A stretch of 55,128 nucleotides of DNA from an uncultured Gammaproteobacteria bacterium (GCA_902581285.1 CACHNP010000011.1:1-55128); one strand, 5' to 3'. Counted from the first letter of the stretch, positions 84 through 48,176 are shown. Numbers and translations are program-made. The notes: generated by a model not told the origin, from the sequence alone.

Positions 84-1706
84 TTACTGAATTCTGCATG
101 ATGTATTTCTTTTTTCTGGGAGCTGGTCATAAAGTTGGCGCTCCATAATGTCTTTGTTATTACTGTTTTTTTTATTATGCTGGTCTTTTTTTAACGTGTC
201 CTTTTCGAGTGAACTTTCTATTTTCTTTATCCATTTTTTATTTTCAGTTTCATGCGTTTTATAGAGTAGATTGATCAGCAGTTGGTTTTTATCTATTATT
301 TCGAGTTTTTTTAATTGTTTATCGATGACTTCTTTTGTTTGAGTATTCAATATCGAGTGAGCATGTTTTATTTGATATGGTTCTAGTCGGCGATCTTTTT
401 TTTCAGTTTTATTTTTTATTAGGTTATTCTTGAGTTCTTGCCTTAGTTCCATATTTTTAAATTCTATTTTCATAAGCATAGAATCGGTTTTTTTGTTTTT
501 TCGTAGATAGTGTTTTTTTATTTTAGAGTAGAGATCTTGGTCATTATTATATAGTAGAGGGAAGTTCCTGATGTTGTCTACGATGATGTATTCTGTTTGG
601 GCGTTAAAAGAAGTGAGAGCATCCTGTTTTTTTATGAGTTTGTCTTTAATGAATTTTGTTATCAAAATGAGGCGTGTGCTCTCGATCAAGTAAAACAAAG
701 AGGCAAGTTCAGACTGAATTGATTCTTGATTAAGAATATTAATTTTTTTTTCCCACACTCTATTAATATATTTTTTAGTAGTTGGTAATAAACTATCCAT
801 CAAGCCACCTAGCATAGAAAGTGAAAATAACCAGTAGTCACTGGTCTCATACGAAGATGAATTGTATATGGCGAGTGAGGATTTAATTAACATGATAGAA
901 TTTATTAGTGCGTTATATAAAGCAACAAATGATTTGGCGCAAGAGCCTGACTTCTTGTATCGAGCCTCAAACACGTTAGATATCATCTGGTATGGGCCGC
1001 TTAAACCATCAATTCCATTCCACCAGTGCTGTGTCAATAATGTGTCGAGTGTTGTGGAGTATTGAGGGAAATAGTGAAGCCAAAGGGTTATTAGTGTGCA
1101 CACGATGTAATAACGGTGTTGGAACGTTGCCAGTCGAGATGTCATGTAGACGGTAAGTGGTGTTTTGTTAGTCATCATCATAAGGTGATTTAGAGGAATC
1201 AGCACTAAGTACGAAAGCGGAGTTTCCGTGCTTATTTTGTACAAGTTGGATGAGTGCATTCTTTTTACAAGGTCACGATATTCTCTGGACTTTAACCATT
1301 CACTATCTGCTTTCTGATTCAGATCTACGATGATAAGGCGAAACATCGCAGACATTACCATTAAAACAATTGCCGCGTTAGTTATTTCGTTTTGTTCTGA
1401 GTCGTTATTGATAGCGTAAAGTGCTGCGCTCGCTGTCGCGCAGGCATATGCCATGATGGAATAAAGAGTTGTGGGGTCAACACAATGGCTTTTCTCATGT
1501 CGATAAGTTTTGGGGTAAGTGGTAGGTTTTATTCCCTGTTCTATTGTTTCATAATTTTCAATTTCTTCTATCGCATGATAATTTTTAATCCTTTTTTTAT
1601 CGCTCAAAAGTGGCTGTTTCATGATAGGCGCCTTGTTGATAGTTGATTGGTCTGTTACGATTTTACCATAAAATAAGTGAGAAAACTTTTGTTTGATAGC
1701 TGGCAA
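84..1706 (-). CDS. Hypothetical 540-aa protein. The N-terminal half has several hydrophobic segments and the C-terminal half is K/E-rich coiled-coil-like. Candidate secreted effector.
   Basis: Long ORF with no conserved enzymatic motif recognised. The gene looks AT-rich and the protein is lysine-rich and low in complexity. Hydrophobic helices at roughly aa 90-330 are followed by charged heptad-like sequence. Confidence 0.45.
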   Translation of the reverse strand: MPAIKQKFSHLFYGKIVTDQSTINKAPIMKQPLLSDKKRIKNYHAIEEIENYETIEQGIKPTTYPKTYRHEKSHCVDPTTLYSIMAYACATASAALYAINNDSEQNEITNAAIVLMVMSAMFRLIIVDLNQKADSEWLKSREYRDLVKRMHSSNLYKISTETPLSYLVLIPLNHLMMMTNKTPLTVYMTSRLATFQHRYYIVCTLITLWLHYFPQYSTTLDTLLTQHWWNGIDGLSGPYQMISNVFEARYKKSGSCAKSFVALYNALINSIMLIKSSLAIYNSSSYETSDYWLFSLSMLGGLMDSLLPTTKKYINRVWEKKINILNQESIQSELASLFYLIESTRLILITKFIKDKLIKKQDALTSFNAQTEYIIVDNIRNFPLLYNNDQDLYSKIKKHYLRKNKKTDSMLMKIEFKNMELRQELKNNLIKNKTEKKDRRLEPYQIKHAHSILNTQTKEVIDKQLKKLEIIDKNQLLINLLYKTHETENKKWIKKIESSLEKDTLKKDQHNKKNSNNKDIMERQLYDQLPEKRNTSCRIQ

Positions 1707-2137: not shown

Positions 2138-3145
2138 TTAACTGATGATGCATCTATAACATGCAGGTACTTCTATGTCATTACTCCATAGGTTTTCATC
2201 AGATTCGCTTCGACTCAGTGGTGAGGCAATGGGTTGGTCCTGTTCATTTACAATACGTATTTTGTTGTCATAACACTTTTTCAGGATATCCCCCAAATCT
2301 GGACCGTTATAAAGGTACTGAGTAAAAAAACGTGGGTAAATATCAGCCATCATTTCCTCAGGAAATTGTCCTGTTAAGCTTGAGATCCCTTTTTTTGAGG
2401 TGCTTAGCATGTCTGAAAGGGGATTGTGTAATCCACGACAGGTTGTCATTAAATTTTTTAGGTCTCTAAAATAAATCGAGCGCAGTGCTTCTAACTCGTC
2501 TAGAGCAAGAACTCTCAGTATCTTTTCAACTTCAACCTTACCTTTATCCTTTTTTAGATGCCCAGATAGCCATTTGATAGCGCTACTCGCCCGCTTGTGA
2601 TTATCCCAGCCTAACTTAACTGAGGTCACTGACTCTGGAGCACTAGCTAAAGCCTCTGCAAGCTCGGGCACTGTTTTGTTTTCAAGGCTATTTCCAGATA
2701 AATTCAAAGTGGCCACATTAGCTCGGATGCCGGAAAAAGCCTCTGCAAGCTCGGCGCCTGGTATGAAGTCAAACGCATTATTAGACAAATTCAATTTGGT
2801 CACTGTTTTTGGGATACCCTCAAAAGCCTCTTTAAGCTCGGCGCCAGATTTCTGAAAAAGACCACACTCCAAACTCAATAAGGTCACATTAGCCGGAATA
2901 GCGCCAAGAGCCTCTTTAAGCTCGGCGCCTGTTTTGTTGTTAAACTCATTAGCGGACAAATCCAATGAAGTCACCGTTTCAGGGATGCTTGAAAAAATTT
3001 CTTTGAGCTCGTCGGCTGTTTTTTTGTAAAGACTATTGTCGCTTAAATCCAATAAAGTCACTGTAGCTGGGATACCGGCGAAAGCCTCTGCAATGTCAGA
3101 GATTGTTTTGTTTCCAATGTCATTCATTTTATGTCGATGATACAT
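2138..3145 (-). CDS. Leucine-rich-repeat protein (RI/RanGAP-like 28-29-residue LRRs). Eukaryotic-like; candidate translocated effector.
   Basis: At least six tandem repeats of the form LxLSxNxL...ELKEAxxxIPxxVTxLxL (LDLSDNSL, LDLSANEF, LNLSNNAF, LNLSGNSL). Confidence 0.7.
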   Translation of the reverse strand: MYHRHKMNDIGNKTISDIAEAFAGIPATVTLLDLSDNSLYKKTADELKEIFSSIPETVTSLDLSANEFNNKTGAELKEALGAIPANVTLLSLECGLFQKSGAELKEAFEGIPKTVTKLNLSNNAFDFIPGAELAEAFSGIRANVATLNLSGNSLENKTVPELAEALASAPESVTSVKLGWDNHKRASSAIKWLSGHLKKDKGKVEVEKILRVLALDELEALRSIYFRDLKNLMTTCRGLHNPLSDMLSTSKKGISSLTGQFPEEMMADIYPRFFTQYLYNGPDLGDILKKCYDNKIRIVNEQDQPIASPLSRSESDENLWSNDIEVPACYRCIIS

Positions 3146-3579: not shown

Positions 3580-3918
3580 TCAGTCGTCTGCGCCTGGCTT
3601 TTCGCTAAAGTATTTTTCAAATTTATTTTCTTCGTCTTTGTACTTACCAGCATCTAATGGGGCGTCTTTTTTTTCTGTGATATTAGGCCAAATTTCAGCG
3701 TATTTTCTATTGATGTTATGCCATTTCTCCTTCTCGTCTTTTGTATCTGGGATAATGGCATCTACAGGGCATTCGGGTTCGCAGACGCCGCAATCGATAC
3801 ACTCATCTGGGTTGATGACCAGCATGTTTTCGCCTTCGTAAAAGCAATCAACGGGGCAGACTTCCACGCAATCGGTGTGTTTGCATTTGATGCACTTTTC
3901 ATTCACAAGGTATGTCAT
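3580..3918 (-). CDS. fdxA: 7Fe (3Fe-4S plus 4Fe-4S) ferredoxin, FdxA-type
   Basis: Two cysteine motifs, [17 protein letters not shown] and [15 protein letters not shown]. Length of 112 aa is typical of Azotobacter-type ferredoxin I. Confidence 0.85.
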
Positions 3919-4104
3919 TTCTCTTCGCCCATCTGATAAAAACTCATTCTACTTTGAAGTGGTGTTGGATGCAATGAGCAGGGTGGTTAAGTTATTCATT
4001 TATATTTAGAAGGTTGTGCTCGCGCGCGCCGCGGTATGACCGTTTTGATGACTTGATTTGCGGTTAAGCTTTGGTTAGAATGGGCGCACTTTAAGTTTCC
4101 TGGA

Positions 4105-4341
4105 GTGATTATGTTTGATCCGCAAGTTATTGAAAATATGATAAAGGATGGCATGAGTTGCCAGTCTGCGACAGTGACTGGTGACGGTCATCACTTTGAA
4201 GCGGTTATCGTCAGCGAGCAATTCTCCGGTGAATCCACTTTGGCGCGACACCGACGTGTGTACGCCACGCTTGGCGCAAAAATGGGCCATGAGATCCACG
4301 CGCTTTCAATCAAAGCGCTAACCCCAGAAGAAGTGCAGTAG
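4105..4341 (+). CDS. BolA/IbaG(YrbA)-family protein
   Basis: 78 aa. The core [31 protein letters not shown]...[13 protein letters not shown] matches the BolA/IbaG family. Confidence 0.8.
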
Positions 4342-4381
4342 CACGCGTCTTCCCAACCATGTTATTGAAAAAACAGGAGCT

Positions 4382-4702
4382 ATGATGTCAGATATTCAAA
4401 CAAAAATCCAAGACACAATCGATAACCACGATGTTGTGTTGTTCATGAAAGGCACTAAAGATTTCCCTCAGTGTGGCTTCTCTGGCAGGGTCGCTCATAT
4501 CCTTAAACAACTTGGCGTTGAGTACCATCACGAAAACGTGCTCGAGGATCCTGAATTGCGTGAAGGTATCAAAACGTTTTCAAATTGGCCTACCATCCCG
4601 CAATTGTATATCAAAGGTGAGTTTATGGGGGGCTGTGATATCGTCTCTGAAATGGAAGCATCTGGCGAATTGAAAAAATTGCTTTGTAACAACGAAGGGT
4701 AA
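4382..4702 (+). CDS. grxD: Monothiol (CGFS) glutaredoxin, Grx4/GrxD type
   Basis: CGFS active site (PQCGFSGR), plus [20 protein letters not shown], which is diagnostic of Grx4-type glutaredoxins. 106 aa. Confidence 0.9.
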
Positions 4703-4943
4703 TTGTTTTTACCCTTTACTGTTTTTAATTTTCTATTCACCCCAGTCAATGGTTTGCTCGTTTTCAAGCTCTTGAGCATGGTCACGTGCTTGGTAAATTT
4801 TTTGATACTTGTCGTGCTCAAATTGCTGAGACGGCGAAAGTGGGTTTTTTTTATTAAATTCAGCCATTTTTTTGTCAATTTCACTGACATAATACCTGTC
4901 GATTTTTTTCATTTTTGATAGAATACCTTTTTTGTAAACATGA

Positions 4944-7900
4944 GTGTGTAGTAGTATGAAACTTAACCTGAATGGCTTTGAATTTCAAGAGCTATTAACT
5001 GCTGAAGGCGTGGCACGCTGCGATGAGCGCTTCATTAACTGGTTGTGCGACAGGGATGCGGGCCTGCATGCTCAATTATTGGCCTACCGTCACGACGGTT
5101 GGGGTCGTGGCCCGGAACTCAGTGATTTTATTATACGCAGTGCTGTGCTGCTTGATGAGTTTCTGGTTGATTTGTATTCCATCCATGACGAGGCAAAGCG
5201 GTTAGAACAAGAGATTAAGTCTCACGACCCTGTTTTTTCGTTTAAGCAATCGTATGTGATAAAAAAAGCCAAGCGCCTGCTGTCGAAGCTGGATGAGCAG
5301 CCGGGATTTACGGAGCTCCATGAGTCTCTGGTGTCTAAGGTGACAGCTGATCAGGGGGGCTTTGATGAGTTGGGTTTGTCGCGCTATGCAATGGCGCTAT
5401 TAACTGAAGAAGCTGCTCATGAGGAAGCCATACTTCAAGTGGTCCAGTGGTCGGCTCACGCGCTTCAGACCGCAGAGGCGCAATCCGTGGTGGCGGAATG
5501 GTCTGCCTTTCGGCTTCCACAAAAAAAAGATTACCAAAATTTGGTCGCGCTAGAGGTGGGTGAAAATGGCATGTTGTCTTCACCTAGTCAGCACCATGTT
5601 CATCGTGATGGCTTTGATCTCACGGACCCCAGGATGACACAGCGACAGGCCTTAAGTGAAATAGATTACTGTGTTTATTGTCACGATAAAGAACGGGATT
5701 ATTGCTCTAGTGGTTTTCCATTAGAGAAAGACAACATGGATGCCGGTTTCAGGAAAAATCCTTTGGATGAGCTGCTGTCTGGATGCCCTTTAGAAGAAAA
5801 AATCTCTGAGATGCATTGGTTAAAGAAATCCGGTTACAGTATAGGTGCGTTAGCCACTGTGATGATTGATAACCCCATGTGCCCTGCAACAGGTCATCGA
5901 ATCTGTAACGACTGTATGCAGTCTTGTATTTATCAAAAACTTGACCCTGTTAACATTCCTCAAGCCGAATCACGGGTGTTGACCGATGTGGTGGATTTGC
6001 CGTGGGGGGTGGAAATCTATGATCTACTGACCCGATGGAATCCATTACGTCGAGAGCAGTATAAAATCAAGCCTTATAACGGAAAGAAAATACTAGTCAT
6101 GGGTATGGGCCCGGCAGGTTTTACTTTGGCGCACCATCTTTTACTCGAAGGCTATGCGGTCGTGGGTGCGGATGGCTTGAAACTGGAGCCATTACAGCAA
6201 GCGTGGCTGCAACAGCCGATAGAAAATTTCTCACGGTTAAAAGACAGTTTGTCTGATCGCATCATGATGGGTTTTGGTGGGGTTGCAGAATACGGCATTA
6301 CGGTCCGTTGGGATAAAAACTTTTTGAAGTTGATTTTGGTTTCTTTACTGCGAAGACAGTATTTTCAGTTGGTTGGTAGTATTCGTTTTGGCGGCGCTTT
6401 AACAGTTGAAAAAGCCTGGGAGCTGGGGTTCGATCATCTTTCGATAGCGGTGGGTGCCGGGTTGCCAAAAGAGCTCATGATTGAAAACAGTTTGGCGATA
6501 GGTATGCGACAGGCGAATGATTTCTTGATGGCATTACAATTGACTGGTGCGGCGAAGAAAAATTCATTGGCAAATTTACAGATTCGAATGCCGATTGTCG
6601 TTATTGGCGGTGGTTTGACTGGTGTTGATGCTGCAACTGAGGCACAGGCATATTACTTGCTGCAAATTGAAAAAATGGCATCGCGTTACGCAACGTTGGT
6701 ATCCCATTATGGGGAAGACAAGGTTAGGGCACGTTTTAGTCAAACCGACTTGACTATTTTAGATGAGTACTTACAGCATGCCCAAATGTTGTTTGATGAG
6801 CGTGAGTGTGCTCGATCTGAAAATCGCCAGCCTGATTTGATCGCTTTGGTTCGCCGTTGGGGTGGTGTAACCATTGCGTATCGTCGCCGTGTTCAAGATT
6901 CACCAGCATACCGTTTAAATCACGAAGAGCTGGCCATGGCAATGGAGCAGGGTTTATATTACGCTGAGCATGTTTCACCTGAAAAAGTCATTTTAGATTC
7001 TAACGGTCACGCTAAAGCGGTGGCTTTTGTGAAAAATGTTGCCGGTAGTGAAGATGTATCTACGGTGACCATGGCGGCTAAAACCATACTCGTCGCTACA
7101 GGCGCTAAACCCAATGTGGCATACGAGTTCGAGCATCGTGGTACTTTTTTGAGGAAGCAGTTTCAGTATGAAAGATTTGATTTGATTGAAGGTGAACTTA
7201 CTCAGGCCAGTGAAGATGTAAACGTGAAATCGTGCCGTATTGGCCCTTTTACAAGCTACAACAAAGACGGTAAGCTGGTCAGCTTTTTGGGGGACACTCA
7301 TTCGGTGTTTCACGGAAGTGTTGTGAATGCGATCGCTTCAGCTAAACGGGTGTATCCACGCATCAGTGAGGCTCTGCAATCGCAACATAATCCGGTCGAT
7401 TGCGATGATTACCCGCTGTTTAGGGAAAAGATACACGACGTTTTTCGTTCACGAGTTATTAGCGTCGAACCCCTTACGAATAATCACATGCAATTAACGG
7501 TGTATTCGCCCTTAGCCGCAGAGCAATTCTATCCTGGGCAATTTTATCGGATTCAAACTTACGAATCGCTAGTTGACACAATCGAGGGCACGGCATTGCA
7601 CATGGAAGCGTTGGCTTTGATTGGGGTTAAGCGAGACAATGCTGACGGGGTGTTATCATTCATTATTAGTGACAACGGCGTTAGCTCTAAACTGGCTTCG
7701 CGTTTTCGCTCAGGCGACAGGTTGTCTGTCATGGGGCCAACTGGTGCGAAGCTACCGCTGCCTCGTGATGGTGGGATGATTATCGTGGGTGGAGAGTGGG
7801 CGCGTATTCAGATCTTGTCGATTGGTTATGAATTAAAAAAATTAGGCGTTAATCTGATTTTTTTCTCTTGTGAAAAAAATACTTTCTTAGAAGATGAAGT

Positions 7901-8369
7901 TAGTTCATTGTGTTCTGAGGTTATCTCAGTTCAGTCGGAATCTGATGTCCCGGCAGCGTTGCAATCTTGGGCAACAAAAAATGTTCAGACTGCGTCAAGT
8001 GTTCGTCAGTGCCAAGTGTTTTCATCGCCATCTTTGTTAAAATCCATTCAAGCGATAAGAGCCAATGAGCCAATGCAGGTGCTGAGTCATGTTCGTTTTA
8101 CCGCTGCGGTTTTCGGGCCAATGCAATGTATGTTGAAAGGGGTTTGCGCGCAATGTTTACAGTGGCAAATTGACCCTGCGACCGGTAAGCGAACCAAGGC
8201 TGTGTATGCATGCTCCTGGCAAAATCAACCCATTGAGATTATTGATATCGACAGTCTGTCGGAACGATTGGCTCAAAATCAATGTCAGGAACACTTGGGC
8301 AGGCTGTGGTTGGATCATATTTCATCTGGTAAAGTGCAAAAAAATGACAGTCAGAGTTTCGTATGGTAG
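4944..8369 (+). CDS. Large multidomain FAD/NAD(P) oxidoreductase of 1141 aa. It has an unknown N-terminal domain of about 230 aa. This is followed by a GltD/SudA/NfnB-like module (Cys clusters and two Rossmann folds) fused to a PyrK/SudB/NfnA-like FNR-fold domain with a C-terminal Cys cluster.
   Basis: Cys clusters CVYCHDKERDYCSSG and CPATGHRICNDCMQSC at about 5660-5930. GxGxxG motifs GMGPAG (about 6106) and GGGLTG (about 6606). C-terminal FNR-like region from RVISVEPLT through GQFYRIQTY, ending in the Cys cluster CMLKGVCAQCLQW...YACSW. Confidence 0.7.
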   Translation: MCSSMKLNLNGFEFQELLTAEGVARCDERFINWLCDRDAGLHAQLLAYRHDGWGRGPELSDFIIRSAVLLDEFLVDLYSIHDEAKRLEQEIKSHDPVFSFKQSYVIKKAKRLLSKLDEQPGFTELHESLVSKVTADQGGFDELGLSRYAMALLTEEAAHEEAILQVVQWSAHALQTAEAQSVVAEWSAFRLPQKKDYQNLVALEVGENGMLSSPSQHHVHRDGFDLTDPRMTQRQALSEIDYCVYCHDKERDYCSSGFPLEKDNMDAGFRKNPLDELLSGCPLEEKISEMHWLKKSGYSIGALATVMIDNPMCPATGHRICNDCMQSCIYQKLDPVNIPQAESRVLTDVVDLPWGVEIYDLLTRWNPLRREQYKIKPYNGKKILVMGMGPAGFTLAHHLLLEGYAVVGADGLKLEPLQQAWLQQPIENFSRLKDSLSDRIMMGFGGVAEYGITVRWDKNFLKLILVSLLRRQYFQLVGSIRFGGALTVEKAWELGFDHLSIAVGAGLPKELMIENSLAIGMRQANDFLMALQLTGAAKKNSLANLQIRMPIVVIGGGLTGVDAATEAQAYYLLQIEKMASRYATLVSHYGEDKVRARFSQTDLTILDEYLQHAQMLFDERECARSENRQPDLIALVRRWGGVTIAYRRRVQDSPAYRLNHEELAMAMEQGLYYAEHVSPEKVILDSNGHAKAVAFVKNVAGSEDVSTVTMAAKTILVATGAKPNVAYEFEHRGTFLRKQFQYERFDLIEGELTQASEDVNVKSCRIGPFTSYNKDGKLVSFLGDTHSVFHGSVVNAIASAKRVYPRISEALQSQHNPVDCDDYPLFREKIHDVFRSRVISVEPLTNNHMQLTVYSPLAAEQFYPGQFYRIQTYESLVDTIEGTALHMEALALIGVKRDNADGVLSFIISDNGVSSKLASRFRSGDRLSVMGPTGAKLPLPRDGGMIIVGGEWARIQILSIGYELKKLGVNLIFFSCEKNTFLEDEVSSLCSEVISVQSESDVPAALQSWATKNVQTASSVRQCQVFSSPSLLKSIQAIRANEPMQVLSHVRFTAAVFGPMQCMLKGVCAQCLQWQIDPATGKRTKAVYACSWQNQPIEIIDIDSLSERLAQNQCQEHLGRLWLDHISSGKVQKNDSQSFVW

Positions 8370-8764: not shown

Positions 8765-9796
8765 ATGAGTAAAGCATCTAAGCAAATTGCTATTAGCATT
8801 CCAGATTTTTCTGTTCCTGAGTCGTATGACCTTGCAGTGAAAAAACAACTGATGAAGAAGATAGCGGATTATTTAAAACAAAATGATGCCGTGTTGATTT
8901 CCCATTACTACACGTCACACGATATTCAGGAATTGACTGAGTTTTGCGGTGGGTTCATTGGTGATTCCTTAGCAATGGCTAAACACGGTCTTGAGCACAG
9001 TGCCAAGAATATCATTGTTTGTGGTGTTAAGTTTATGGGCGAAACGGCGAAGATTTTGAGTCCCGATAAAAATGTCTTTATGCCAACCTTAAATGCAACT
9101 TGCTCTCTTGATTTAGGTTGCCCAGCAGATGACTTTAAGACATTTTGTGAACAATACCCTGATCGCACTGTTGTTGTCTATGCGAATACGTCAGCTAGAG
9201 TGAAAGCCATAGCTGATTGGGTTGTGACATCGTCTAATGCATTGGAGATCATTGATTATCTAGATTCAAAAGGCGAAAAGATCATATGGGCACCAGATAA
9301 GTATTTAGGCTCTTATATTAAAAAACAAACATCGGCTGATATGGTTTTGTGGGATGGGGCGTGTATTGTGCACGAAGAGTTTAAAGCACAGGCACTATTG
9401 GATCTTAAAAAAGTTCATCCTAACGCTGCTGTTTTGGTTCATCCTGAGTCGCCTGCTTCAGTTGTCGGTATTGCCGATGTGGTGGGTTCTACTTCAAAAT
9501 TATTGTCAGCAACTAAAACAATGGACAACGACACTTTTATCGTTGCAACGGATTCTGGTATTTTCTACAAAATGAAACAGGCATCACCTGATAAAACCTT
9601 TATTGAGGCTCCTACGTCTGGGCAAGGTGCAACATGCCGTAGTTGTGCTCGATGCCCTTGGATGTCGATGAATCAATTATCGATGATCGATAAGTCATTA
9701 TTCAATAAAGATTGCGAAATTACTTTGGATCCCGAAATAATTAAGCAAGCTCAGGTCTCCCTAAATAGGATGGTCTCATTTCCACCTGAAAGTTAA
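8765..9796 (+). CDS. nadA: Quinolinate synthase A
   Basis: Strong identity to E. coli NadA across [60 protein letters not shown] and [13 protein letters not shown]. Confidence 0.93.
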
Positions 9797-9813
9797 ATAA
9801 AAAAAGGAATAGC

Positions 9814-10605
9814 ATGCGTTTCAATTACAGTACATTGTGTGTTGATCTTGTTGCCGAAGGTATTTTGCTTTTAACCTTGAATCGTCGTGAAGTCCACAAT
9901 GCGATAAATTCGGTTATGATGACAGAGCTTTTATCTTTTTGGAATACGGTTTCTGATGCTAATGATTTAAGGGTAATAGTGATCACTGGCAGTGGTGATC
10001 GTGCTTTTTGCGCAGGGGCGGATTTAAAAGAGCGGTTTAATTTAGACCTAAATACATGGAAAGAGCAACACGCTGTATTGCAGGCGGCAATGAAAGCGAT
10101 GTCGAGTTGCCCACTGCCAATTATTAGCATGGTAAATGGCTTGGCTTTTGGTGGTGGTTTAGAGTTGGCTTTAGCGAGTGACTTTGTATACGCTTCCAAA
10201 ACAAGTCAGTTTGCGCAATCAGAAGTGAAGCTGGGTATTATGCCTGGCGCAATGGGTACGCAAAATCTTCCAAGAGCGCTTGGTGCTCGACGAGCCCGTG
10301 AGTGTGCTTATACTGGAGAGGTCTTTTCAGGTGAGCAAGCTTATGACTGGGGTCTTGTTAATCATTTATTCCCCCTGGAAACCTTGAAAGATGGAACGAT
10401 AGCTGTTGCTAAAAAGATAGCATCAAATGCGCCTCTGGCTGTTCGCCAAGTTAAACGCTCAATCAATAAAGCGGTGTCTGATGAGTTGATTTCTGGCTAT
10501 GATTTTGAGGTATCATGTTATAATTCTTTACTTGAGTCAGCGGATAGATTGGAAGGCATCGCTGCTTTTAATGAAAAGCGTTTACCCGATTTTAAAGGGG
10601 TTTAA
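9814..10605 (+). CDS. Enoyl-CoA hydratase/isomerase (crotonase) family protein
   Basis: Crotonase signatures ITGSGDRAFCAGADLKE and NGLAFGGGLELALASDF. Confidence 0.8.
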   Translation: MRFNYSTLCVDLVAEGILLLTLNRREVHNAINSVMMTELLSFWNTVSDANDLRVIVITGSGDRAFCAGADLKERFNLDLNTWKEQHAVLQAAMKAMSSCPLPIISMVNGLAFGGGLELALASDFVYASKTSQFAQSEVKLGIMPGAMGTQNLPRALGARRARECAYTGEVFSGEQAYDWGLVNHLFPLETLKDGTIAVAKKIASNAPLAVRQVKRSINKAVSDELISGYDFEVSCYNSLLESADRLEGIAAFNEKRLPDFKGV

Positions 10606-10606
10606 C

Positions 10607-46814: not shown

Positions 46815-48176
46815 TTAAACTACCAAATTTGTTTCTGGCTGAGTATGATCTGTTAACTTAATTTGTTTTTCAATCTGTTTAAGTTCTTCCATGTCAGTTA
46901 TCTCGCTTATTGTAGAATCAAAAAGACTGAACTTGGTTTCCAATTTGCATATTTTAGCGATGCTTTGATTTGTTAAGGATGCAAATTTTTTCATTATAAT
47001 GGATGAGAAAATCAAGATAGTTGGGTATGTGTTGAAAATCGTGGTTGCTGCCTCGGTTGACGGGGTAATAATGCTGTGTTTGTAGTCTTTGTACCATGTT
47101 TCATTACCGACATATCTTTCAGTTAGATACAAGGATGTTGCGCTAGAAAAAACGCCAAAATAAGCGGTTAACAAACTGACTAGCGCCAATATCAAGCAGT
47201 TTACTGTGGGTTGAAGATAATAAGGGAGTTGCTTTTTACTGATAAAGTCAACCACGTTAGAATCAACTTTGTCGATCACATAGAGCGTGATTCCAGCAAA
47301 GGGAATAAAGGCAGTGATGCCTAGCGGAATACTGTTAAAGCATTCTTCTATTGTTAAAAGAGTGTAGCCGATGAGAGCGCACGACATCATGAATGTGTTG
47401 ACGCCGTTTGCAGTGTACCGAAGAGTGAGTTTGGTAGAGTCAGATAATTCACTTTGGGTGTTGCTGCTTCGGATTGATTTAAGGGTTTTTGCCCACGAAT
47501 CCAGGTCAACTAGATTCTCAATAGCATTATTTGTGAGGCTGATTTGTTTGGTTTCAGAGAATGAGTTAATTAAACCGAGTTTTTTCTGCTTAATAAATTT
47601 TTGTATATCTAATTGCATGGCCTTGTGCGCTAACAAGACTGATGATTCAGGTTGTTTTTTTTTACACTGTATTGTTTGTATGTGTGATAAGGTATCAATG
47701 ATGCTGTTAACCAGGAAGCTTGCCCCCTGGTAGTGAATAAAAAAGTAGGCTGCTAGCTCAATGATAGCACTGTACATTGGGTCGTGATTTATTAAGGTTG
47801 TCGCAACGAAAGGGATTGTTGATACTGAGGTGGTTAGGATAACTAATGCTTCAATTTTTTTATCTTTTTTATCGCTTTCATTCTTGAAACTTTGAATGCA
47901 ATCATTGGCAAAGTATGCGTTTAAAATGGCGTTGAGCACAAAGCCACCAATAAATGAATTGGTTTCTTTATCCTCCAGGCTAACAGGCCATGGTAATGTT
48001 ACCAGTGATGCGCCGTTTGAGGCTGTCTTTTTAAAAGCAAACCAGGATGAAAGAAACCCCAATGTGCTTGCCACTAGTAAGATGGTTATGTCGGAATAAT
48101 CGATTTTTCTATTTGACTCCGCGTTTTTTCGTTTGAAAATTTGATTGAATGTGTTTTTGTGGTTTGGTTCAAGCAT
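46815..48176 (-). CDS. Hypothetical 453-aa polytopic membrane protein; candidate accessory gene or effector
   Basis: Multiple hydrophobic helices. AT-rich. Convergent on purA with an 18-bp gap. No conserved motif recognised. Confidence 0.45.
   Translation of the reverse strand: MLEPNHKNTFNQIFKRKNAESNRKIDYSDITILLVASTLGFLSSWFAFKKTASNGASLVTLPWPVSLEDKETNSFIGGFVLNAILNAYFANDCIQSFKNESDKKDKKIEALVILTTSVSTIPFVATTLINHDPMYSAIIELAAYFFIHYQGASFLVNSIIDTLSHIQTIQCKKKQPESSVLLAHKAMQLDIQKFIKQKKLGLINSFSETKQISLTNNAIENLVDLDSWAKTLKSIRSSNTQSELSDSTKLTLRYTANGVNTFMMSCALIGYTLLTIEECFNSIPLGITAFIPFAGITLYVIDKVDSNVVDFISKKQLPYYLQPTVNCLILALVSLLTAYFGVFSSATSLYLTERYVGNETWYKDYKHSIITPSTEAATTIFNTYPTILIFSSIIMKKFASLTNQSIAKICKLETKFSLFDSTISEITDMEELKQIEKQIKLTDHTQPETNLVV

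Follow-up and report, generated by a model that had tools for sequence, protein, structure and literature searches.

The stretch of DNA analysed here (55,128 nucleotides from an uncultured Gammaproteobacteria bacterium, GCA_902581285.1 CACHNP010000011.1:1-55128, called the window throughout) carries a large gene whose product, judged by sequence profiles, belongs to the catalogued and widespread RP005/PRK06567 protein family, which has no assigned function. Upstream of it lie genes for a 7Fe-type ferredoxin (fdxA), a BolA/IbaG-like protein and a CGFS monothiol glutaredoxin (grx), and a rhodanese gene follows it (Table 1). An earlier note on the same DNA, made without database searches, had recognised the opposite-strand ferredoxin gene as well as the BolA/IbaG and glutaredoxin genes, all of which were recovered by profile searches, and had regarded the large gene as an unusual fusion oxidoreductase forming a dedicated electron-transfer or Fe-S module with them.

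The list of open reading frames (ORFs) of the window contains one uninterrupted ORF at 4944-8369(+), in line with the single polypeptide described earlier; its length of 1141 amino acids has probably to be corrected. The homologs of the large gene begin at MKLNL, which corresponds to ATG 4956, and an NCBI-sourced product that probably corresponds to the gene (P0271) has the same start and consists of 1137 amino acids. Since the homolog N-termini and P0271 agree, translation probably begins at ATG 4956 rather than at GTG 4944, giving a product of 1137 amino acids rather than 1141.

Domain architecture and conserved motifs

On the basis of profile searches and structure prediction, the large protein is composed of a helical N-terminal domain, an NfnB/SudA/GltD-like module, an NfnA/PyrK-like ferredoxin-NADP reductase (FNR) module and a terminal four-Cys motif. 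Its top NCBIfam match was PRK06567 (625 bits, E 2e-187, residues 5-973), the alignment spanning model positions 1 to 923 of 1031; this score is below the equivalog cutoff of 1072 bits, and the protein is a clear homolog of the family. The runner-up models were of the Nfn type (PRK12778, 94 bits; TIGR01316, 78 bits), and the C-terminal part matched PRK06222, the model of a sulfide/dihydroorotate dehydrogenase-like FAD/NAD-binding protein (E 2e-8). When sequences of the PDB were searched, phmmer connected the middle part with the large subunits of P. furiosus NfnI and Xfn (E 3e-14), and the family profile connected the C-terminal part with NfnI-S (5jca_S, E 2e-10), T. maritima NfnA (4ylf_A, E 1e-9) and PyrK (1ep3_B, E 6e-7). 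The C-terminal 322 amino acids had no match in the local Pfam copy, and the Pfam Fer4_20 match in the Fe-S region was weak. When the Fe-S region and the C-terminal Cys region were each searched alone against the PDB by phmmer, only chance matches (CD81, DnaK) resulted; the Cys motifs cannot be aligned to the NfnB and NfnA ligands by sequence alone.

The AlphaFold2 model of the large protein, built from 120 homologs, was confident, with a mean predicted local distance difference test (pLDDT) value of 89.7 and a predicted template modelling (pTM) score of 0.91. Comparison of this model with the PDB by Foldseek returned NfnI-L and Xfn (5jca_L, 5jfc_L, 5vj7_A) at E values of about 1e-19 to 1e-20 (NfnI-L 6e-20) and target template modelling (TM) scores of 0.76-0.82, and NfnI-S and T. 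maritima NfnA at E 1e-11 to 1e-9 (best 1.5e-11) and TM 0.74-0.75. The alignment with the 471-residue NfnI-L chain comprised 617 columns, which is beyond the share expected of the Rossmann region. According to the secondary structure of the model, a family-specific helical hairpin is inserted at about residues 554-621, within the NADPH domain. The three-part layout suggested previously, i.e. an N-terminal domain of about 230 amino acids, a GltD/SudA/NfnB-like part and a PyrK/SudB/NfnA-like part, is thus supported by the hidden Markov model profiles, the AlphaFold model and Foldseek alike, and the C-terminal third has the profile and fold matches of an FNR/PyrK domain.

The N-terminal domain of about 232 amino acids is all-helical in the model. 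The N-terminal 235 amino acids had no match in the local Pfam copy, which predates PF27156 ('RP005_N'); this Pfam family is precomputed on the 97%-identical protein P0001 and on all of the 120 homologs listed. Searching 1.84 billion representative proteins with the N-terminal domain gave 358 hits, which, except for P0121, were all located at the N-terminus of proteins of about 1000-1200 amino acids or in short fragments. P0121 (3678 amino acids), the top hit, was rejected as an unrelated metagenomic protein, in which 49 near-identical tandem repeats of 75 amino acids sum up the short chance match 'SGFKLTD'. No structural relative of the domain was found among solved structures.

Conservation was evaluated in 76 species, namely the query and 75 full-length orthologs from species loci (38-51% identical). 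Eleven of the 21 Cys residues of the query are 99-100% conserved (C239, C242, C250, C277, C317, C320, C324, C1058, C1064, C1067 and C1086), and nine of the others are conserved in 5% or less. Such a pattern is as expected for cluster ligands, and it is consistent with the earlier assignment of the Cys motifs as probable ligands. In the Fe-S domain the Cys residues form two motifs, C239, C242, C250, C277 and C309, C317, C320, C324, seven of them being 100% conserved and C309 being Cys in 64% of the species. The C-terminal motif, C1058-x5-C1064-x2-C1067-x18-C1086, is of the [2Fe-2S] type, and all four of its members belong to the 99-100% class; its spacing appears similar to the ligand pattern of the PyrK [2Fe-2S] cluster. 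Both GxGxxG motifs (GMGPAG and GGGLTG), which had been pointed out in the earlier note as Rossmann motifs, are invariant, together with Y642-R643-[RK]644 and with MGPTG, R865 and Q867 of the FNR module. Y642-R643-[RK]644 corresponds to the NADPH-type signature located behind the second Rossmann strand of NfnB. Identity to the query is highest, at 62-64%, in the Fe-S region and the first FAD/NADPH regions; it falls to 28% in the N-terminal domain and to about 20% in the NAD subdomain of the FNR module, the two least conserved parts of the chain.

Furthermore, the FNR-type glycine motif divides the family into three clades in this alignment. The canonical GGGLGNA is found in the Myxococcota, Acidobacteriota and Methylococcaceae, and AGRWGAA in the group of Acidithiobacillus and Ectothiorhodospiraceae; in the Legionellales the motif is variable and degenerate, with GGEWARI for the window protein, GSSMAAA for Coxiella, and either GNQLSIA or DSQQGLA for other members. 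Additionally, a variant of 1028 amino acids (P0226), the length of which fits the 1031-position PRK06567 model, is devoid of most of the NAD subdomain and keeps the [2Fe-2S] Cys residues. In view of these three motif clades and of P0226, the family as a whole has not conserved the NAD(H) site of classical Nfn, and the presence of this site in the window protein is doubtful. Classical NADH-dependent bifurcation is likewise doubtful in this lineage, since the glycine motif of its FNR module is degenerate.

At the level of motifs and folds the large protein resembles NfnAB in both subunit folds (TM 0.74-0.82), in the Cys motifs predicted to ligate two [4Fe-4S] clusters and one [2Fe-2S] cluster, and in the FAD/NADPH Rossmann motifs. 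In contrast to NfnAB, both parts are joined in one chain, in the B-to-A order, and the sequence identity is only 15-22%; the large protein also has an extra N-terminal domain of 232 amino acids and the helical insert in the NADPH domain, and, at motif level, the GGGxGxx-type NAD(H) motif of its A-like part is not intact. It shares the Fe-S, FAD and NADPH fold with GltD (Foldseek 6s6s_E, E 7e-14), from which it differs by its extra FNR module and extra N-terminal domain. A role as the glutamate synthase small subunit (GltD) was considered and rejected: the GOGAT_sm_gam model gave 37 bits against a cutoff of 448, and there is no GltB-like gene in the neighbourhood within the window. With the PRK06567 family the whole-length architecture is common, including the N-terminal domain; the window protein exceeds the model by about 110 amino acids, most of which fall in the C-terminal NAD subdomain.

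Table 1. Features of the locus and predicted domains of the large protein, in window coordinates
Feature	Position	Strand	Evidence
fdxA, 7Fe-type ferredoxin, 112 aa	3580..3918	-	NCBIfam NF045490 FdxA_Protbact 156.9 vs cutoff 135 bits; Pfam Fer4, DUF3470
BolA/IbaG-like protein, 78 aa (start may be ATG 4111)	4105..4341	+	Pfam BolA E 6e-19
Grx4-family CGFS monothiol glutaredoxin, 106 aa	4382..4702	+	TIGR00365 149 vs cutoff 117 bits; CGFS in translation
Terminator-like hairpin and T-run overlapping the grx stop codon	4694..4717	+	Pattern scan
59-aa gene, CBU_0585 homolog	4733..4912	-	BLASTP vs Coxiella CBU_0585, 38% identity, E 4e-11
Large gene, residues 1-232: all-helical N-terminal domain, RP005_N type	4956..5651	+	
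Large gene, residues 233-345: Fe-S domain with two 4-Cys motifs	5652..5990	+	Cys conservation; weak Pfam Fer4_20 match; Foldseek
Large gene, residues 346-830: NfnB/SudA/GltD-like FAD and NADPH domains	5991..7445	+	Pfam Pyr_redox_2; PDB 5jca_L, 5vj7_A; conservation; model secondary structure
Large gene, residues 831-1045: NfnA/PyrK-like FNR module	7446..8090	+	PRK06222; PDB profile matches; Foldseek; motif comparison
Large gene, residues 1046-1137 and stop codon: [2Fe-2S]-type Cys motif and C-terminal helix	8091..8369	+	Cys conservation
Single-domain rhodanese, 108 aa	8433..8759	+	Pfam Rhodanese E 4e-17

Distribution of the family and gene context

The family bears the NCBIfam name 'putative bifunctional glutamate synthase subunit beta/2-polyprenylphenol hydroxylase' and carries the Pfam domains RP005_N and Pyr_redox_2. 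In 2013 it was described as a GltD-like/'UbiB' chimera present in nearly every Rickettsiales genome (PMC3641634), and the same combination of a GltD-like and an FNR-like ('UbiB' COG) part in one chain is present in the large protein according to profiles and Foldseek. The family is far more widespread than that statement implied. A word-indexed protein search revealed at least 8000 relatives; among the 120 matches listed all were full length and 48-97% identical, including CBU_0586 of Coxiella burnetii, with which the window protein shares 51% identity over the full length as well as the local synteny. A scan of one genome per species detected at least 598 species loci, which include those of the Legionellales, the Coxiellaceae (among them a Coxiella-like tick endosymbiont, L019, with an intact gene), Acidithiobacillus, the Methylococcaceae, Ectothiorhodospiraceae, Thiotrichaceae, Cardiobacteriales and Burkholderiales, as well as of Myxococcus, Corallococcus, the Acidobacteriota, Planctomycetota, Nitrospirota and Binatia. 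A redox protein of about 1100 residues with several predicted cofactors is conserved from the Rickettsiales and a Coxiella-like endosymbiont to the Myxococcota and Acidobacteriota, yet it has no assigned function; it would belong to the core redox metabolism of several intracellular pathogens, including Coxiella, Rickettsia (according to the literature) and Legionella (judging by the name of the neighbouring Pfam family, CBU_0585_lpg0581).

PRK12779, which we assume to be the NCBIfam counterpart of the 'pattern C' Nfn homologs, is a separate family, as the window protein reached 61 bits against its cutoff of 1519. The pattern C proteins of Actinobacteria and Proteobacteria (about 950 amino acids) are also natural fusions with a C-terminal NfnA-like part, for which the 2019 Nfn review describes no extra N-terminal domain, and patterns B, C and D are all presented there as natural Nfn fusions (PMC6405883). 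Considering these fusions, the catalogue entries PRK06567 and RP005_N, and the numbers of relatives and species loci given above, the fusion is neither rare nor newly noticed, contrary to what had been thought, and the window gene is an ordinary member of its family.

The synteny around the large gene was found to be restricted. When the window's neighbours were compared by tblastn with 83 loci, fdxA, bolA, grx, rhodanese, nadA and DUF2797 genes turned up near the large gene in no loci other than those of Coxiella and its Legionellales relatives, except that fdxA, found within 6 kb at Legionellales loci, also lies 2-2.5 kb away at two loci that are unrelated, L020 and L080. The gene order recurs in another three lineages of the Legionellales (50-56% identity), with insertions between the genes. 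Of the 80 loci of the species scan, 75 have neither bolA nor grx within 6 kb, and a Legionellaceae locus is one of these. All-against-all clustering of the flanking ORFs of 81 loci yielded no neighbour family common across phyla, and sharing occurred among close relatives only. The rhodanese gene occupies the same downstream position in Coxiella, L004, L084 and L085, and stands about 1.1 kb further downstream in L022.

Contrary to the earlier claim, the large gene is not situated directly downstream of grx: a 59-aa gene of the opposite strand, just short of the 60-aa threshold of the ORF list, intervenes. Because of this gene, the co-transcription of the large gene with bolA and grx is unlikely. 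The 59-aa gene is divergent to the large gene, its start being 43 bp from ATG 4956, and its homologs carry the Pfam family PF28076 'CBU_0585_lpg0581'. A CBU_0585-like gene is directly upstream and divergent in L001-L003, L004, L005, L006, L019, L022, L084 and L085; in L086, where another gene is inserted, it is found about 1.1 kb upstream. It is the most constant Legionellales neighbour, more so than fdxA, bolA and grx, and it is kept without fdxA and grx in L004 and L006. As a side observation, the product of this gene could be a regulator or a partner of the large protein.

Taken together, synteny inherited at the level of the order (Legionellales/Coxiellaceae), and not an operon, is the best reading of the fdxA-bolA-grx 'module', and the idea of a dedicated electron-transfer or Fe-S module is weakened by this restriction, by the interrupting gene and by the lack of any neighbour conserved across phyla. 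The large protein is probably not a dedicated partner of Grx4-BolA; a functional link to FdxA is possible.

Proposed function and competing explanations

We tentatively favour, with reserve, the view that the large protein is a cytoplasmic single-chain iron-sulfur flavoprotein of the Nfn type, which acts as a housekeeping NADPH-dependent one-electron reductase of a ferredoxin-type acceptor. The analysis shows how the protein is built and folded, which ligand and nucleotide motifs are conserved, where the family occurs and which genes surround the large gene; the cofactors, the donor NADPH, the acceptor ferredoxin and the direction of the electron flow are inferred. NADPH, bound by the second of the two Rossmann folds in the NfnB/GltD-like module, would reduce the FAD there, and the electrons would exit singly through the two [4Fe-4S] clusters to an external low-potential one-electron acceptor, for which a ferredoxin, for example the 7Fe FdxA encoded nearby, is the most plausible candidate. 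The [2Fe-2S] cluster would provide the link to the C-terminal FNR-like module, and the N-terminal helical domain and the helical insert, both family-specific additions, probably serve as scaffold or for the docking of a partner. The likely role would be a housekeeping supply of reducing power, which fits the retention of the gene in the Coxiella-like endosymbiont and in nearly all Rickettsiales (PMC3641634). Precedent exists in another proteobacterium: AadN of Rhodopseudomonas palustris, a natural Nfn fusion of pattern B, runs in the ferredoxin-reducing direction (PMC9973337). A true NADPH-to-ferredoxin link would explain the supply of low-potential electrons to Fe-S and radical S-adenosylmethionine (radical-SAM) enzymes in aerobes without obvious ferredoxin-reducing systems.

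Several observations weigh against a ferredoxin reductase of this kind. Outside the Legionellales, the large gene has no conserved neighbour that would encode a ferredoxin or another partner. C309 of the second Fe-S motif is replaced by Val, Ile or Leu in the clade with the AGRWGAA motif. In the FNR module the positions aligned with the ERIPLT segment of NfnI-S, taken here as its FAD-contact motif, are non-canonical (A880, I889), and the binding of a second FAD is uncertain because of this. Moreover, the literature found on the locus tags and family accessions consists of an epitope list and one comparative-genomics remark, and no biochemical or genetic study of any member of the family was found there. 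The same search brought up no characterised ortholog, so that an ortholog with an unrelated function, which the earlier note had named as an outcome that would speak against it, was not encountered.

Another explanation, which we consider rather unlikely, is that the protein is an NADPH-dependent reductase of a non-ferredoxin substrate or partner recognised by the N-terminal domain, the Nfn-like part being only the electron input, as in GltD; a sulfur or persulfide carrier (in view of the downstream rhodanese gene), a quinone or another protein would be candidates. The N-terminal domain is exclusive to the family, always N-terminal and without structural relatives, and GltD-like modules are commonly electron inputs of diverse partners (StnABC, NfnABC and GltD among the Foldseek hits in the PDB). 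However, the low conservation of this domain would be unusual for a catalytic substrate site, and the linkage of the rhodanese gene, seen downstream of the large gene at several loci of the Legionellales, is confined to this order; no partner gene is conserved across phyla.

It is less likely still that the protein is a true bifurcating Nfn, in which an NADPH-fed FAD would split electrons between NAD+ (through the [2Fe-2S] cluster and the FNR FAD) and ferredoxin (through the [4Fe-4S] pair), or would work in the reverse direction; low-potential reduced ferredoxin would then be generated from NADPH in an aerobe. The two Fe-S motif sets of NfnAB, its [2Fe-2S]-type motif, its FAD/NADPH Rossmann folds and its FNR-like fold have counterparts here at the level of motif and fold, the clade of Myxococcota, Acidobacteriota and Methylococcaceae retains the canonical glycine motif, and fusions in the B-to-A order are known as pattern C (PMC6405883). 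Yet the glycine motif is degenerate in the window protein and the Legionellales, the NAD subdomain is poorly conserved, and the 1028-aa variant dispenses with most of it. It was stated by the authors of the AadN study that not every Nfn homolog bifurcates (PMC9973337). P. furiosus Xfn (5vj7), one of the best fold matches, is not known to bifurcate.

A role of the protein, alongside Grx4 (GrxD), BolA and FdxA, in a dedicated module for the trafficking or repair of Fe-S clusters, for instance by providing electrons for cluster assembly or transfer, in line with the earlier note, is the most improbable of the explanations considered, since the order fdxA(-), bolA, grx ... large gene, though kept in Coxiella, the Coxiella-like endosymbiont and several Legionellales at about 50% identity, is interrupted by the opposite-strand gene and in some lineages by several inserted genes, lacks bolA and grx in most species loci, and within a single order can be plain inheritance.

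Returning to the ferredoxin reductase, we regard as improbable, at this stage a speculation, its extension to the whole RP005 family, which would then serve many aerobic and intracellular bacteria as a low-potential ferredoxin reductase of the housekeeping kind that has so far escaped recognition. A possibly bifurcating, Nfn-derived cofactor chain would pass electrons from NADPH to 7Fe ferredoxins of the FdxA type, to be used by radical-SAM and Fe-S enzymes, and the N-terminal domain would be the acceptor dock. The bacteria concerned would include, with the same low expectation, the Rickettsiales, Legionellales, Coxiella, Acidithiobacillus, methanotrophs, Myxococcota and Acidobacteriota.

Other genes of the window

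The BolA-family gene scored 47 bits with the NCBIfam BolA equivalog (cutoff 137). Terminator-like sites, such as the one overlapping the grx stop codon, are not enriched in the window (6 found, 6.1 expected in shuffles). The rhodanese gene is followed by nadA, an enoyl-CoA hydratase gene and a DUF2797 gene. An aerobic lifestyle had been deduced earlier from the other genes; those in the window, being of housekeeping type, do not show it, and its sole basis is that the relatives are Legionellales/Coxiellaceae.

The nadA gene at 8765-9796 (tool-checked) is the first of an NAD-related run at 8765-14224, in which the ORFs 11745-12803 and 12833-14224 resemble, by inspection of their translations, a NadM/NadR-type nicotinamide-nucleotide adenylyltransferase-Nudix fusion and a nicotinamide phosphoribosyltransferase. 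A gene related to CinA-like nicotinamide mononucleotide deamidases lies at 32829-33680 (tool-checked). The DUF2797 protein at 10499-11437(+) (E 3e-83) is followed by a small membrane protein like CBU_0592 at 11437-11718(+), in the order of Coxiella, which extends the synteny block; as listed, the DUF2797 ORF of 312 amino acids overlaps the preceding enoyl-CoA hydratase gene, and its true start is probably near 10610. Finally, large ORFs at 84-1706(-), 2138-3145(-), 14228-18884(-), 28658-31330(-) and 46815-48176(-) had no NCBIfam match or were unscanned. These orphans look effector-type, as expected in a Legionellales/Coxiellaceae genome, and the ORF at 2138-3145(-) contains repeated 'LDLSxN...ELKEA' units resembling leucine-rich repeats.

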